A stretch of 64,000 nucleotides of DNA, taken from the IMG/VR virus record IMGVR_UViG_3300028549_001461, positions 97,222-161,221 of that record, one strand, 5' to 3'. Of the stretch, positions 2,473 to 63,829 are shown piece after piece. The stretch's first letter is position 1; each line of letters begins with the position of its first letter. The DNA comes from a virus. Below the pieces are notes generated by a model. That model did no database searches, had not been told where the DNA came from, and saw only the letters and a program-made list of their open reading frames with translations. The translations under genes and the position numbers were made by a program.

Positions 2473-3503
2473 TTAAATTGATAAAAGGTAAAATAAACAT
2501 ACTTATTGATGGACAATTTGGTTCTACTGGTAAGGGTTTATTTGCAGAGTACTTATCTGATTTGGACATACAGATTGCCATTACTAACGCTGGCCCTAAT
2601 TCTGGTCATACCTTCTCTTTTAAAGGTGCCAAACAGGTAACAAAACAGTTACCTGTTACTGGCATACTTAATACAGATAGTATAATTTACATAACTCATG
2701 GATCCATAATTGAGCCATCAACCTTTTTTAAGGAACTTGAGTTATTTAATATAGCTGCCGAAAGAGTAATTATAGATCCAAGAGCTACTGTTGTTCATGA
2801 TAAAGATATATTCGCAGAGGAAGCAAGCAACTCTTCTTTTACTAATATATCTTCTACCCAGAGTGGTGCTGGTAATGCTTTATCCAGAAAAATTCGTAGA
2901 GAAGGAAACATAGCTGGTAATTACAACGCTTTTTCTGTATTTACGAAACCCTTTAATTTGGAACATAATCTGAATTCAGGTAAACTAGCTTTGATGGAAG
3001 TTCCACAAGGTTTAGGCTTATCTTTAAATTCTAAATTTTATCCCTACTGTACAAGCAGAGATATTACAATAGCAAACTCTCTAAATGATTGTGGTGTGCA
3101 CCCATATTATCTTGGTAAGGTCTTAGTATGTCTACGTACTTTTCCTATACGAGTTGGTAATCTAATTTCCAATTGTTCTGAAAATTCTTACAAAGACACA
3201 GGCACCACATGTGCAACTATTAATTATTCTGGGGATTTTTATAGAGACAGTGTGGAAACCACATGGGATGCCATAGGAGTTCCTAAAGAATATACTACTA
3301 ATACTAAACGTGTAAGAAGAGTGGCTACTTTTTCATATGAGCAATATAAAGATATGCTAGTTAAATTAAGGCCTGATTATGTATTTTTAAATTTTTGTAA
3401 TTACCTAAGTGAGGAAGAGTTATCTAGGTTATTAGACAATTTACCACTAGTAACCCACCTTGGTTTTGGAGATACTGTGGATAAAATTGTTTCAATAAAT
3501 TGA
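2469..3503 (+). CDS. purZ: PurZ-type adenylosuccinate synthetase homologue
   Basis: GQFGSTGKG (Ser where PurA has Asp in GDEGKG), FYPYCTSRD, RTFPIRVG, TTxTKRVRR, FLNFCNYL. Confidence 0.8.
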   Translation: MIKLIKGKINILIDGQFGSTGKGLFAEYLSDLDIQIAITNAGPNSGHTFSFKGAKQVTKQLPVTGILNTDSIIYITHGSIIEPSTFFKELELFNIAAERVIIDPRATVVHDKDIFAEEASNSSFTNISSTQSGAGNALSRKIRREGNIAGNYNAFSVFTKPFNLEHNLNSGKLALMEVPQGLGLSLNSKFYPYCTSRDITIANSLNDCGVHPYYLGKVLVCLRTFPIRVGNLISNCSENSYKDTGTTCATINYSGDFYRDSVETTWDAIGVPKEYTTNTKRVRRVATFSYEQYKDMLVKLRPDYVFLNFCNYLSEEELSRLLDNLPLVTHLGFGDTVDKIVSIN

Positions 3504-3545
3504 AAAAATTTAATATAATTATATATTTATAGTTATAAGCGAGGG

Positions 3546-4502
3546 TTGAATATGGAAGTATATAGAACAATAAATGGTCATGTAGCCAAGTATGTCCATG
3601 ATGACGGCTCAGAAACAGCTATAAAAACTATACCACCTGGAGAAGTTGGTTGTGGTGGTTATGGTAGTATAGGTAATAAGTACAATATTTTTATAAGTAC
3701 TTCTGTTGGATGCCCTGTATCATGTAAGTTTTGTTATTTGACAGTTAAAAAGTGCCCCTATCATAAATTAACTGCACGAGATGTAGTTTTAAATGTTTTA
3801 GACGCTTTAACTGCTGAGTTAAAAGAAAGACCAGAACTTAGATACATGTACACTAAAATTTCTTGGATGGGTATGGGAGATGGTTTTTTCGACACTTCAT
3901 TAGTCTTTGAAGCTACCGAAGACCTTATGGAGTACATACAAAGTTTTGAAATGTCTTTAGGTATAGATGGTGTAGATATAGCAACAACTTTACCAAAAAT
4001 ACCTGATGGTCCAGTTGATTACATAAAAAAGATATCCGAAAGTGTTTGGGAAACTTATTTAAATCCAAAACGGGAGTATAAGAGAGGTAGCAGCCAACAA
4101 CCTTTTAGGGTTTTTTATTCTTTACAAAGCGCAAATGAATTGACAAGAAAAAGTCTAATACCTAATAGTGTAAATATTTCAGATGCTATTGATTATTTAA
4201 AAAATTTAAATAACAACAACATACCTATTATATTTCATTATATGTTTTTTGAAGGTAAAAATGACTCTGAGGAAGAAGTTACAGCTCTTCTTAAACTTTT
4301 GAATAACTTTAATAATTCTGAACTTCGTTTACTACGTTTTAATAAATGCCCAGGCACTGATTTTTCAGAGTCACCAAAATTTAACGAACTGGTAGATACG
4401 ATATATACCAAGCATAAAAATTTAAAAGTACAAATTTCCCCAGGGTCCGAGATCCAGGCAGCTTGCGGTATGTTTTTATTATCTAAGATTTTAACTAAGT
4501 GA
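3546..4502 (+). CDS. RlmN/Cfr-like radical SAM protein (intact)
   Basis: DGSET, ISTSVGCPVSCKFC, MGMGD, C-terminal EIQAACG. Confidence 0.8.
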   Translation: MNMEVYRTINGHVAKYVHDDGSETAIKTIPPGEVGCGGYGSIGNKYNIFISTSVGCPVSCKFCYLTVKKCPYHKLTARDVVLNVLDALTAELKERPELRYMYTKISWMGMGDGFFDTSLVFEATEDLMEYIQSFEMSLGIDGVDIATTLPKIPDGPVDYIKKISESVWETYLNPKREYKRGSSQQPFRVFYSLQSANELTRKSLIPNSVNISDAIDYLKNLNNNNIPIIFHYMFFEGKNDSEEEVTALLKLLNNFNNSELRLLRFNKCPGTDFSESPKFNELVDTIYTKHKNLKVQISPGSEIQAACGMFLLSKILTK

Positions 4503-32954: not shown

Positions 32955-33266
32955 ATGAAAATAACTTGGTACAGATATGAAGACACATATAGAGTAGACC
33001 CACCAATTACTGTACAATTTAATGAAGTTACCAGCAGAGAAGGAGCTTTTGAAGATTTGTTACGTGTAATTACAGAGGATTTTGAGCCTTGGATTACAGA
33101 ACATTGGCCAGAAATAAATGGCTTGGTCACTTTACATAGTTGGCCTGATATAAATACTGACTTTAAAAAGATACAGTATATTGAAGACACATTCTCAGTA
33201 AATATGTTATACGGTATACCTATGTGGCGTGATAGAGTTACAGGAAAATTAACTTTTATAGATTAG
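32955..33266 (+). CDS. Hypothetical protein
   Basis: ORF track. Confidence 0.55.
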   Translation: MKITWYRYEDTYRVDPPITVQFNEVTSREGAFEDLLRVITEDFEPWITEHWPEINGLVTLHSWPDINTDFKKIQYIEDTFSVNMLYGIPMWRDRVTGKLTFID

Positions 33267-33274
33267 GAGATCTT

Positions 33275-33316
33275 ATGGAAAACTCAGGTTTTACATAGAA
33301 CAATAGATCACCGTAA
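33275..33316 (+). promoter_or_regulatory. Amber-containing leader ORF MENSGFT(TAG)NNRSP(TAA)
   Basis: AGGAGA RBS at 33265-33270; TAG 33296-33298; downstream hairpin 33308-33368 covers next RBS. Confidence 0.6.
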
Positions 33317-33373
33317 CTAAGATTATTATTTAAAGTTGCTAATTAAATCAATAATCTTAATTCGGAGAACTAT

Positions 33374-33685
33374 ATGAAAACTATGAAAGAAATGAAAGCT
33401 TATTTAAAAGAAACCGCAGTAAAAATAAAAGAAGCAAAGAAACAAAGAAAAGGTGCCACATATGGCTTTGTGGAGGTTTTAGATTCCTATAACCCACAGA
33501 TAAATTTAAGATATCAATACAGACATCACCATATAGCCTACAGCTTACTACGTGGACGTACTATGGAACAGATAGAACGTACCTGTAGAGAAGATAATAA
33601 ACCTAATGAAGATTATTATAATTTACTTATGATACCTATAATTAGAATAAAAAGAGAAGAGGAGCTATTACAAAATGTCGCTTAA
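33374..33685 (+). CDS. Basic hypothetical protein of the amber module
   Basis: GGAGA RBS; YRHHHIAYSLLRGR motif; overlaps next gene by 11 nt. Confidence 0.7.
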   Translation: MKTMKEMKAYLKETAVKIKEAKKQRKGATYGFVEVLDSYNPQINLRYQYRHHHIAYSLLRGRTMEQIERTCREDNKPNEDYYNLLMIPIIRIKREEELLQNVA

Positions 33686-34010: not shown

Positions 34011-34016
34011 ATTCTT

Positions 34017-34088
34017 GCTTCTATAGCTTAATGGTTAAAGCGGCAGTCTCTAAAACTGCACATATGGTTTCGATCACCATTAGAAGCA
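34017..34088 (+). tRNA. Amber suppressor tRNA (CUA anticodon)
   Basis: GCTTCTA/TAGAAGC, GCTT/AAGC, GCAGT-CTCTAAA-ACTGC, ATGGT-TTCGATC-ACCAT; all stems fully paired; A73. Confidence 0.9.
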
Positions 34089-34103
34089 TATAAGGAGTAT
34101 TAT

Positions 34104-34322
34104 ATGGATATTACAGTAAAAGAACTTTCTAAATTAAAACAAGAAGCTGAAAGTGACATAGCTAAAGAAGTGTCCAGAATTTTAGAAGACTTTAAAGAAA
34201 AATCCGGGATACGTTGTGCAGATCACTCTGTATATATAGATATGGTTTACTCAAGAACGATAGACAATAAATATTCAGAAGCATTTGTGTCTGATGCTTC
34301 AATAAGAATGGAGATTTTTTAA
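34104..34322 (+). CDS. Hypothetical protein
   Basis: AAGGAG RBS. Confidence 0.6.
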   Translation: MDITVKELSKLKQEAESDIAKEVSRILEDFKEKSGIRCADHSVYIDMVYSRTIDNKYSEAFVSDASIRMEIF

Positions 34323-34711
34323 TGGACACTAAACAAGTTATAGTAATGCGTAAAGATTTAAATATGAGGAAAGGCAAAATGGTGGCACAAGGTAGCCACG
34401 CTAGTTTAGCAAATATATTAAAAGAATTGGATTACGACTCTTGTGTAGCTTCTCACGAACCTCCTTGGTTTAATGATACTATAATACATTGGCTAGAAAA
34501 TTCTTTTGCTAAAGTGTGTGTTGGTGTTAATTCTGAGGCAGAATTGTTGTCTATCTATGATCAAGCCACTCAAGCAGGTTTGTTATGCTGTTTAATAAAA
34601 GATTCAGGAAGAACTGAATTTGGCGGCGTCCCAACGTATACTTGTCTTTGTGTGGGGCCTAATATTAATGAAGACATAGATAAAATAACAGGACATTTAG
34701 CACTTTTATAA
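34322..34711 (+). CDS. pth2: Peptidyl-tRNA hydrolase Pth2 (intact)
   Basis: KQVIVMRKDLNMRKGKMVAQGSHA, KVCV, DSGRTEF, TCLCVGP, IDKITGHLALL. Confidence 0.92.
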   Translation: MDTKQVIVMRKDLNMRKGKMVAQGSHASLANILKELDYDSCVASHEPPWFNDTIIHWLENSFAKVCVGVNSEAELLSIYDQATQAGLLCCLIKDSGRTEFGGVPTYTCLCVGPNINEDIDKITGHLALL

Positions 34712-56762: not shown

Positions 56763-56822
56763 AATTCTCCTTAAATAAAGACAAATTTAATATCATTATA
56801 ACAATATTCTATGAGTATACCA

Positions 56823-57080
56823 CTACATCTCTAAAATGTGACTAAAAGAAGATGCCAAATCATCTCTTATACCCAATGATTGTAAAGTACATTCATCAGG
56901 TACTGTTATTGTAGTATAATGAAAACCATCACCATCAATACCCACAATATCATCCCAACCTAATTTACCATCATCATGTAATTTTTCTGCTTTTGTTATC
57001 CACTCTTTACTAAATGTAAATTTTGGTATATACGAACCATCCATACTATCTTGTACTAATACATATAATTCTTTTGACAT
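56823..57080 (-). CDS. Hypothetical protein
   Basis: ORF track. Confidence 0.55.
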   Translation of the reverse strand: MSKELYVLVQDSMDGSYIPKFTFSKEWITKAEKLHDDGKLGWDDIVGIDGDGFHYTTITVPDECTLQSLGIRDDLASSFSHILEM

Positions 57081-57092
57081 AATATTATCTAC

Positions 57093-57545
57093 CTATTTAT
57101 AATAAACCAAAGCATTAAACTTACCAAGTGTTTTATCTACAATTTTTTCGACTACGCTCCAATTACCACCTGCAAGACCACAACCAATTTTTGGTAATCT
57201 TATTTCCCAAGTACTATACTTTTCAGCAACAGTAGCCATGCACTTTTCTATAGCTTCATACTCAGCATATAGTCTGTTGTCTCTTCCGTAATAATATTGT
57301 GTGTAACAATTAAGAATATGTAAGTTATCAGAAATAACTGCAGTACTAAAAGTACCTAATTTTTTTCTATCTCCTCTAATTGTTTGTGTTATATCAGCAG
57401 TGTACACTTGAGGAAATTTATTTTTTAAATATTTTGCTATCCCAGAGCCCATGGTGTGGAAACAGTTACATCCGTGAAGAATTACTGTTTTCTGATTATT
57501 GATATCTAAATTACTCAATATATCAGCTTTAATTGTGTTTATCAT
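57093..57545 (-). CDS. Macrodomain (ADP-ribose processing) protein
   Basis: HGCNCFHTMGSGIA, NCYTQ, PKIGCGLAGGNW. Confidence 0.88.
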   Translation of the reverse strand: MINTIKADILSNLDINNQKTVILHGCNCFHTMGSGIAKYLKNKFPQVYTADITQTIRGDRKKLGTFSTAVISDNLHILNCYTQYYYGRDNRLYAEYEAIEKCMATVAEKYSTWEIRLPKIGCGLAGGNWSVVEKIVDKTLGKFNALVYYK

Positions 57546-62923: not shown

Positions 62924-63148
62924 TTACTTTTTTTTCTTTGCTGCTACTTGTCTTATGATCTTACTTTCTTTCTTATTGGGTACATGCTCACGTTGGTTAA
63001 GTTCTTCTTTCAATTGAAAAGTTGTCCAACCATATTCATTATCATATGGAGAATAAAATCCGCCACATTTACGAGCTTTTTCTAATAGCTTCATTAATGT
63101 TTTTGTGTGTTTACTTTTTAAGTCTAATGCGATCATTTTTGTCACCAT
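62924..63148 (-). CDS. Hypothetical basic protein
   Basis: LKEELNQREHVPNKKE. Confidence 0.55.
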   Translation of the reverse strand: MVTKMIALDLKSKHTKTLMKLLEKARKCGGFYSPYDNEYGWTTFQLKEELNQREHVPNKKESKIIRQVAAKKKK

Positions 63149-63158
63149 TAATTTTTTA

Positions 63159-63294
63159 TGCCTCGTGGTAGATTCGAACTACCGTCTTTCTTTTATCATA
63201 AGAGAAGTAACCATGCTATACACCACTTGTTTTATTAAACAAGGGAACTAGTTAACAAGGTGGCTTAATGCTCTACCAATTGAGCTAACGAGGC
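63159..63294 (-). ncRNA. tRNA-shaped RNA with ~80-nt structured insert in place of the anticodon arm
   Basis: GCCTCGT/ACGAGGC acceptor, GCTC-AATTGGTA-GAGC D arm, GGTAG-TTCGAAT-CTACC T arm. Confidence 0.75.
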
Positions 63295-63304
63295 GTACTA
63301 AGAA

Positions 63305-63829
63305 CTATTTTTCTAAAATTAAATACATTTGATTTATCAAAGTTTCTGCTTTTGCTCTTAAAATAGCACTTGCTTTTGTTAAATTCCACAAGAGCTGTCT
63401 CTTTTCTTCCAAGTACGTAGGAGCAAATACTGGATCGCATAATACAATACCTTGAATATTATGTAGCATGTCAGCTACTTTCAGATCTTGTGAATATGCA
63501 GTGCCGTTACAGTAATGTATTCTATCAATCTCTTTTCTTACTTTTCTGGAACCATCTTCTTTTGTTGCTTTTTCAGTAGCATAAAATACAGTACTTGCTA
63601 CAACTTCTCCAAAGCGTTCATGTATAACTTCTAGTGTGATGTCTTTACAATCTTCAACAGTATCGTGTAGTAAAGCTGCTGCAAGTACCTCGGCATTATT
63701 GGCATAAATTTCTGTTAATATACCCATTACTGCAAGTGGGTGTTGTATGTAAGCAGTGCCACCGAATTTTCTAAACTGTCCTTTATGAGCTTCCATTGCA
63801 AATTGAAAAGCTTTTTCAATGAGTGGCAT
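63305..63829 (-). CDS. HD-domain (p)ppGpp hydrolase-like protein (small alarmone hydrolase fold)
   Basis: AHKGQFRK, YIQHP, ALLHDTVED, KVADMLHN. Confidence 0.85.
   Translation of the reverse strand: MPLIEKAFQFAMEAHKGQFRKFGGTAYIQHPLAVMGILTEIYANNAEVLAAALLHDTVEDCKDITLEVIHERFGEVVASTVFYATEKATKEDGSRKVRKEIDRIHYCNGTAYSQDLKVADMLHNIQGIVLCDPVFAPTYLEEKRQLLWNLTKASAILRAKAETLINQMYLILEK

Follow-up and report, generated by a model that had tools for sequence, protein, structure and literature searches.

A UAG-interrupted leader mini-ORF conserved in phage loci is probably a translational switch with amber read-through as its input

The window analysed here is a stretch of 64,000 nt from IMG/VR virus record IMGVR_UViG_3300028549_001461. 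It carries a leader mini-ORF with an internal in-frame UAG, and the Shine-Dalgarno (SD) sequence of the following gene is predicted to be paired in a helix whose 5' strand begins in the codons behind this UAG. On comparative and folding grounds the arrangement is, with good confidence though short of certainty, a leader-peptide translational switch with UAG read-through as its input. An initial annotation, made from the letters of the window, had proposed translational attenuation that senses amber suppression, and this proposal is supported by 42 leaders in related loci, by a helix with locus-specific complementarity, and by folding models. The features of the region are listed in Table 1.

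Table 1. Features of the leader region and its downstream genes, in window coordinates
Feature	Position	Strand	Remark
Upstream ORF, 103 aa, no family	32955-33266	+	TAG stop 33264-66 overlaps leader SD
Leader Shine-Dalgarno AGGAGA	33265-33270	+	4 nt before ATG 33275
Leader mini-ORF, 13 codons with internal UAG	33275-33316	+	read directly from sequence
Gate helix	33303-33333 with 33343-33373, loop 33334-42	+	RNAfold, -16.8 kcal/mol
Gated gene 1, 103-aa all-helical protein	33374-33685	+	unnamed family, model pLDDT 91
Gated gene 2, mini Pth2-like, 97 aa	33675-33968	+	PF01981 E=1.2e-4, 22.7 bits vs cut-off 23
tRNA, anticodon CUA (amber suppressor)	34016-34089	+	640 nt downstream of leader finding
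Canonical Pth2, 129 aa, neighbourhood gene	34322-34711	+	PF01981 E=2.8e-31

The source record is a single contig of 161,221 bp with a G+C content of 32.7%, and the window is its last 64 kb. The genome looks like that of a large phage, with genes in long co-directional blocks, seven tRNAs, and proteins that match phage contigs only. It uses the standard code, as ORFs of at least 100 aa span 92% of the genome under table 11. A greedy ORF set of the whole genome (n=170) ends in TAA in 118 cases, TGA in 26, and TAG in 26, and the TAG-ending ORFs include proteins of 1890 and 2269 aa. Recoding of the whole genome was ruled out by the standard-code coverage of 0.92 together with the 26 of 170 ORFs ending in TAG. 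The same use of TAG as a terminator was counted against the UAG-sensor explanation, with regard to the tolerance of suppression. Two other candidate genes with an in-frame TAG to be read through were rejected; the family matches of 56796-57545 are two separate genes, and those of 62924-63829 show a normal gene end. GenBank phages have no DNA similarity to the window beyond a 37-nt piece of tRNA, and no match to the ORF 33374 protein was obtained among them in tblastn. A scan of genome contigs for closer relatives found none.

The leader was recovered base for base as the initial annotation had described it, with AGGAGA, seven codons, TAG, the codons for NNRSP, and TAA. Its codons are ATG GAA AAC TCA GGT TTT ACA TAG AAC AAT AGA TCA CCG TAA, and the peptide is M-E-N-S-G-F-T-UAG-N-N-R-S-P-UAA, with UAG at 33296-98, A as the base following it, and UAA at 33314-16. 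The leader has its own ribosome-binding site, ends with a Pro-stop pair (CCG TAA, 33311-33316), and lies with its stop 57 nt from ATG 33374. A small hairpin is seen within the leader at 33274-33297, where UAUG of the leader start pairs with CAUA overlapping the UAG and encloses AAAAC paired with GUUUU; a comparable small hairpin lies across the conserved S-G-F codons of the relative L005. The upstream ORF has no relatives in IMG/VR; beyond its TAG the frame stays open for 18 codons, as far as TAA 33318-20 at the base of the gate helix. By itself the mini-ORF could be due to chance, because a scan of the whole genome (161 kb) for SD, ATG, at most eight codons, and TAG followed by a Pro-stop gave 2 matches vs 0.7 expected in shuffled sequence. 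It is the comparison with loci of relatives that lifts it above chance.

The ORF 33374 protein and an alignment of five sequences were used to search IMG/VR and JGI metagenomes for homologues, by protein similarity only; alignment A2 proved too diverse for finding loci, and A1 was used. The search returned 39 loci from IMG/VR and 20 from the JGI metagenomes, at about 30-50% identity. Upstream of the homologues, 42 non-identical leaders of one design were found, most of them preceded by an SD-like motif and consisting of ATG, 1-6 further codons, and UAG, which is codon 3 in 30 leaders. UAG is followed by a purine in 57 of 58 cases, and in 43 of 58 by a codon for Val or Ile. The part behind the UAG is 3-20 codons long; it ends in Pro-Pro-stop in 33 of the 42 leaders and contains Pro-Pro somewhere in 38. 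Pro-Pro has a Lys before it in 20 leaders, and several contain R-G/A/S-P-P. There are also twelve leaders with two in-frame UAGs and two with three, and the frame is kept in all of them. The median gap between the leader stop and the downstream AUG is 54 nt. A few homologous loci, such as L061, have no recognisable leader.

A chance mini-ORF beside an ordinary intergenic hairpin would suit the genome-wide count given above, but such an origin is next to impossible for an element which stands at the same position in 42 diverged loci and has a helix of locus-specific complementarity. When both strands of 411 kb of locus sequence were scanned, the leader pattern occurred 37 times, always 30-110 nt upstream of a homologue and nowhere else. 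The Pro-Pro pair is encoded by 12 different hexamers across the leaders, and together with the preserved frame this argues for selection on the peptide, from which read-through of the UAG is inferred. Part of the Pro-Pro conservation could lie at the RNA level, as CCUCC is complementary to GGAGG, and the anti-SD of L044, L049, and L054 is formed by the K-P-P-stop codons themselves.

The window has the features of this family, namely SD, ATG, 1-7 codons, and UAG followed by a purine, and then the RGRTxEQIE protein, the mini-Pth2, and tRNA(CUA). Its leader is a variant with seven codons before the UAG and an R-S-P-stop ending; further variations are the TAG of the upstream ORF, which overlaps the leader SD, and a second UAG gate in the mini-Pth2 gene. 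The nearest relative is L005, with 49% protein identity and the same order of genes and tRNAs. The L005 leader reads M-Y-K-S-G-F-V-UAG-V-A-R-S-P-UAA, so that SGF-x-UAG-xx-RSP-UAA is common to both, as is the CCG/CGG base of the helix (in L005, CCG(UA) joined to (UA)CGG of the SD), while the AT-rich stems differ. The R-S-P-stop variant is found in the window and L005 only, other endings being mostly Pro-Pro-stop, and a DNA pattern search for the SGF-UAG-RSP subtype found the contig of L005 only.

Several loci have further peculiarities. In L009, L023, L052, and L053 the 3' end of an endolysin-like gene (...DDIMKK-TAG) contains the leader ATG in frame, so the TAG stop of that gene would be the sensor codon; the read-through tail in these loci ends in K-P-P-stop. 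The published megaphage Prevotella phage Lak-A1 (L065, MK250016) has at 1245-2309 a tRNA(UUA) followed by a mini-ORF M-K-L-Q-H-W-TAA-V-T-L-S-R-G-S-P... and then a divergent helical protein and mini-Pth2, which looks like an ochre-codon version of the module.

Both inverted repeats reported in the initial annotation, of 10 and 6 bp, are present at 33318-33 / 33343-59. TAAGATTATT (33318-27) and AATAATCTTA (33350-59) are exact reverse complements of each other, and ATTTAA (33328-33) is the reverse complement of TTAAAT (33343-48). The pairing that it had drawn between TCACCG (33308-13) and CGGAGA (33363-68) holds at five of six positions, with one A.A mismatch. GGAGA at 33364-68 is the SD of ORF 33374, 5 nt before its ATG. 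RNAfold yields this same helix, lengthened by pairing of AUAG (33303-06) with CUAU (33370-73). The 5' strand consists of the read-through codons, the leader stop, and the next 17 nt; the 3' strand takes in the SD and the 4 nt before the AUG. The 146-nt region has a folding z of -3.4, and none of 200 shuffles folds as well. The end of the window leader pairs with its own SD region at -14.0 kcal/mol, compared with a median of -4.0 across the SD regions of the 42 families, and its own region ranks first of 42. A terminator scan at 33318-33359 found nothing and no U tract follows the stem after 33359; on these two results an intrinsic terminator, and with it transcription attenuation of the trp/his type, was rejected.

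A hairpin of this kind is predicted by RNAfold in nearly every locus. It begins 0-10 nt past the last stop of the leader, and its 3' arm covers the SD of the homologue and often the AUG too. The mean paired probability of the SD of the gated gene is 0.79 vs 0.52 for 153 control SD genes of the same loci (Mann-Whitney p=2e-9). The leader end pairs with its own SD region at -14.0 kcal/mol on average, mismatched pairs at -8.0 (permutation p<=5e-5), and the own SD region is the best partner for 17 of 42 leaders and among the top three for 32. Arm sequences differ between loci and the complementarity is locus-specific. The sequence elements and the predicted helix are conserved, with covariation, in over 40 loci.

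The effect of a ribosome on the helix was modelled by imposing its footprint as unpaired during folding. Across the family the SD pairing is 0.85 in the free RNA, 0.86 when the A site holds the UAG, and 0.50 when it holds the final stop (Wilcoxon p=1e-11). The corresponding values for the window are 0.78 free, 0.70 with the ribosome at the UAG, and 0.45 at UAA 33314, so the proposal that only a ribosome which has read through the UAG opens the helix agrees with the folding models, in which opening occurs at the final stop and not at the UAG. The window SD is released in part only (0.78 to 0.45), as some weak alternative pairs persist. A ribosome that has passed the TAG of the upstream ORF and stopped at 33318-20 also removes the gate in the folding model.

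It is improbable that the hairpin chiefly serves processing (by RNase III or otherwise), mRNA stability, or transcription termination, or that a read-through ribosome represses the downstream genes. A long, AT-rich stem located between genes of a long co-directional cluster would suit such a role, as would the partial release of the window SD in the ribosome model. Against it stand the negative terminator scan and the one constant across loci, a 3' arm lying on the SD (often on the AUG) and a 5' arm abutting the leader stop. Repression is opposed by L016, which has no separate leader. There the homologous gene itself reads SD-ATG-CGG-TAG straight into the conserved N-terminus (M-R-UAG); it offers no alternative start codon, and its neighbours are standard-code genes. 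With the UAG inside the gene itself, L016 can only mean that the gene is ON when the UAG is suppressed. Three independent points, namely the helix geometry, L016, and the UAG in the mini-Pth2 gene, agree that suppression would turn the genes ON.

The switch with UAG read-through as input would then operate as follows, its read-through, R-S-P-stop pause, ON direction, and purpose being inferred. By default, the SD GGAGA (33364-68) would be locked in the helix with 33303-33333. A ribosome starting at the leader AUG would meet the UAG at codon 8, where RF1 would release it, and the helix would never be reached. Under induction, the phage tRNA(CUA) would decode the UAG, and the ribosome would translate N-N-R-S-P and come to sit on UAA 33314-16, where slow termination after the C-terminal proline may hold it. 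The held ribosome would cover the 5' strand of the helix and free the SD, and the helical protein would be translated. The overlapping mini-Pth2 gene would probably follow by coupling, with a second UAG gate at its codon 46. Ribosomes reading through the TAG of the upstream ORF would end at 33318-20 with the same effect, and even without a pause the passage of a ribosome would open the helix transiently.

Regarding the pause, a C-terminal Pro-Pro disturbs termination in every context tested in E. coli (PMC3834316, citing Hayes et al. 2002). RAPP-like cores cause robust ribosome arrest, RGPP and RAPP being the strongest and RSPP partly permissive (PMC12992588; PMC10951233). The R-S-P-stop ending of the window resembles the P-site state of RSPP arrest with a stop codon in the A site, and by this analogy a pause is plausible; because the ending is not Pro-Pro-stop, the stalling literature applies to it less directly.

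A tRNA(CUA) gene lies 0.3-1 kb downstream of the homologue in about 33 of the 39 IMG/VR loci, mostly with the mini-Pth2 gene in between. A few loci (L018, L019, L037, L043) have no tRNA(CUA) within the 5-kb stretch taken, and L015, L028, and L038 have two different tRNA(CUA) genes each. The acceptor stems and discriminator bases of the suppressor tRNAs differ across loci, so they point to no single amino acid. The tRNAs probably share neither a common origin nor a common amino acid. At L047, a tRNA with anticodon TCA (opal suppressor; SeC in ARAGORN) and a tRNA-Met lie at 330-650, just upstream of a leader that reads M-K-K-F-G-UAG-V-V-N-R-A-R-P-P-P-K-G-G-UAG. Eight loci (L011, L028, L032, L033, L036, L038, L039, L041) have a promoter of the TGnTATAAT type about 100-200 nt before the leader, followed by an unusual tRNA-like gene (80-84 nt) that immediately precedes the UAG leader. 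ARAGORN predicts this gene as tRNA-Phe(aaa) or with a 4-base anticodon (taaa), and it has an oversized A-rich anticodon loop.

UAG read-through depends on the ratio of suppressor tRNA to RF1, and the sensor necessarily reads this balance and not the tRNA alone. The same hardware might even have RF1 activity, depleted or inhibited by host state or a phage factor, as the quantity sensed. Whatever lowers termination at the UAG would in that case unlock the gate. The few loci without a tRNA(CUA) in the stretch taken would fit this. A purine following UAG is linked to a weak termination context, and its near-constant presence in the leaders fits a context tuned for weak termination. Sensing of RF1 activity is nevertheless unlikely, as the tRNA(CUA) near most of the loci and at 34016-34089 in the window is the simplest source of read-through, and near-cognate read-through of UAG without a suppressor is normally far too low to serve as a signal.

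The protein encoded by gated gene 1 has the family core (E/Q)(Y/F)RHKHIAYxLLRGRTxEQIE. It matched no family in Pfam and PHROG, its model gave nothing at E<=0.001 in Foldseek, and VIA-align returned generic helical hairpins only, with a best Z of 6.4, which is below the meaningful level for helical proteins. Codon 46 of the overlapping mini-Pth2 gene is an in-frame TAG (33810-12) with GTT behind it, a TAG-Val context that most leaders share. The residue at this position is K, G, or A in homologues (AAG, Lys, in L005) and the motifs continue on both sides of it, so the gene would need suppression. The helical protein and the mini-Pth2 are fused in one group of loci (about 187 aa), and in a natural fusion of this kind the C-terminal half adopts the Pth2 fold (Foldseek probability 1.00 to MJ0051, Sulfolobus Pth2, and Bit1); the fusions imply that the two proteins work together. 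The mini-Pth2 gene of the window is followed by tRNA(CUA), a 72-aa ORF, and the canonical Pth2, and the suppressor tRNA is thus flanked by two Pth2-type genes. L004/L040 have at 3428-4000 an HNH-endonuclease-like ORF in place of the mini-Pth2, between the helical-protein gene and tRNA(CUA).

Minigenes and early hungry codons accumulate peptidyl-tRNA that Pth must clear (PMC2490762, PMC10192219). The module might accordingly be a minigene or peptidyl-tRNA drop-off circuit like the lambda bar minigenes, with Pth2-like enzymes handling or sensing the load and the codons behind the UAG irrelevant. Most leaders (30 of 42) have only two codons before the UAG, a strong SD, and a place beside Pth2-like genes, as such a circuit would. 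It is still highly improbable, since it leaves unexplained the in-frame, peptide-level conservation of Pro-Pro-stop with its 12 synonymous hexamers, the leaders with two or three in-frame UAGs, and the helix of leader end and SD, and the window leader has seven codons before its UAG.

What the gated proteins act on can be guessed as tRNA or peptidyl-tRNA once suppression is active, for damage control or as feedback on the suppressor. Together with the switch they might form a self-measuring controller of code override, in which the leader gauges UAG read as sense and turns ON a two-part enzyme, whose helical targeting domain and mini-Pth2 hydrolase act on the suppressor tRNA or on peptidyl-tRNAs made by suppression. 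This is a speculative proposal that is rather doubtful at present. If it were true, a phage that ends 15% of its genes in TAG could keep suppression tolerable, and the UAG within the mini-Pth2 gene would steepen the response.

Known leader-peptide switches respond to antibiotics, amino acids, secretion, or charged tRNAs. The searchable literature yielded no description of a natural UAG-gated leader, or of a natural switch that senses a stop codon read as sense, and a survey of recoded phages mentions, in its full text, neither leaders nor attenuation nor hydrolases. Many phages have suppressor tRNAs without recoding, and a conserved sensor with two proteins beside the tRNA would be a testable handle on why. 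It would also supply a compact natural part of about 100 nt that reports amber suppression and is useful for genetic-code-expansion work.

The closest mechanics are those of ermC, cat, and cmlA attenuation. These systems, like the window, have a short leader ORF with its own SD, and the regulated SD is in a hairpin whose 5' arm is in or beside the leader. When a ribosome is held at a set point of the leader, the hairpin opens and translation is turned ON; the same is proposed here. The signal there is a ribosome-bound antibiotic, whereas in the window it would be decoding of the internal UAG by a suppressor tRNA. Unlike in ermC, cat, and cmlA, the holding site would be Pro(-Pro)-stop, reachable only after read-through. 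No resistance gene was found downstream of the window leader with Pfam and PHROG; the conserved feature is the UAG beside tRNA(CUA).

The RAPP-like arrest peptides ApdA, ApdP, ApcA, and SecM have an R-[A/G/S]-P-P or R-x-x-P core (PMC10951233, PMC12992588). Such cores end a small upstream ORF that regulates the next gene, and several leaders of the family end in RGPP, RAPP, or RSPP, whereas K-P-P, the ending of most, does not count as a RAPP core. In the window, R-S-P has UAA and not a Pro codon behind it in the A site, so that the R-A/G-P-P core is absent. Its 13-residue peptide has no signal or membrane segment and no link to Sec or YidC, and a helical protein and a mini-Pth2 are encoded downstream.

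YbeL-PP and TnaC resemble the leader in that the nascent chain ends in proline while a stop codon occupies the A site, which slows release there and may do so here. The pausing of YbeL-PP at Pro-Pro termination (Hayes, Bose and Sauer 2002, as cited in PMC3834316) is a side effect leading to tmRNA tagging and not a switch. The likeness to TnaC, to which the initial annotation had compared the leader, holds for the Pro-stop ending but not for the rest. TnaC needs free tryptophan and controls Rho-dependent transcription termination, neither of which applies to the window, where the helix covers the SD and not a rut or terminator region, and the leader peptide contains no Trp and no Asp.

The prfB gene for RF2 also gauges stop recognition at an early in-frame stop, with expression following the outcome. 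It does so by a +1 frameshift at a UGA inside the regulated gene and measures RF2, whereas the window has a separate leader, in-frame UAG suppression, and an RNA helix, and none of the regulated products is a release factor. Engineered amber leader switches for unnatural amino acids are the nearest in input, as the UAGs in their leaders reportedly make expression depend on an amber suppressor tRNA. They are said to be synthetic constructs on tna and trp leaders, whereas the element in the window is natural, conserved, and located on a phage genome.
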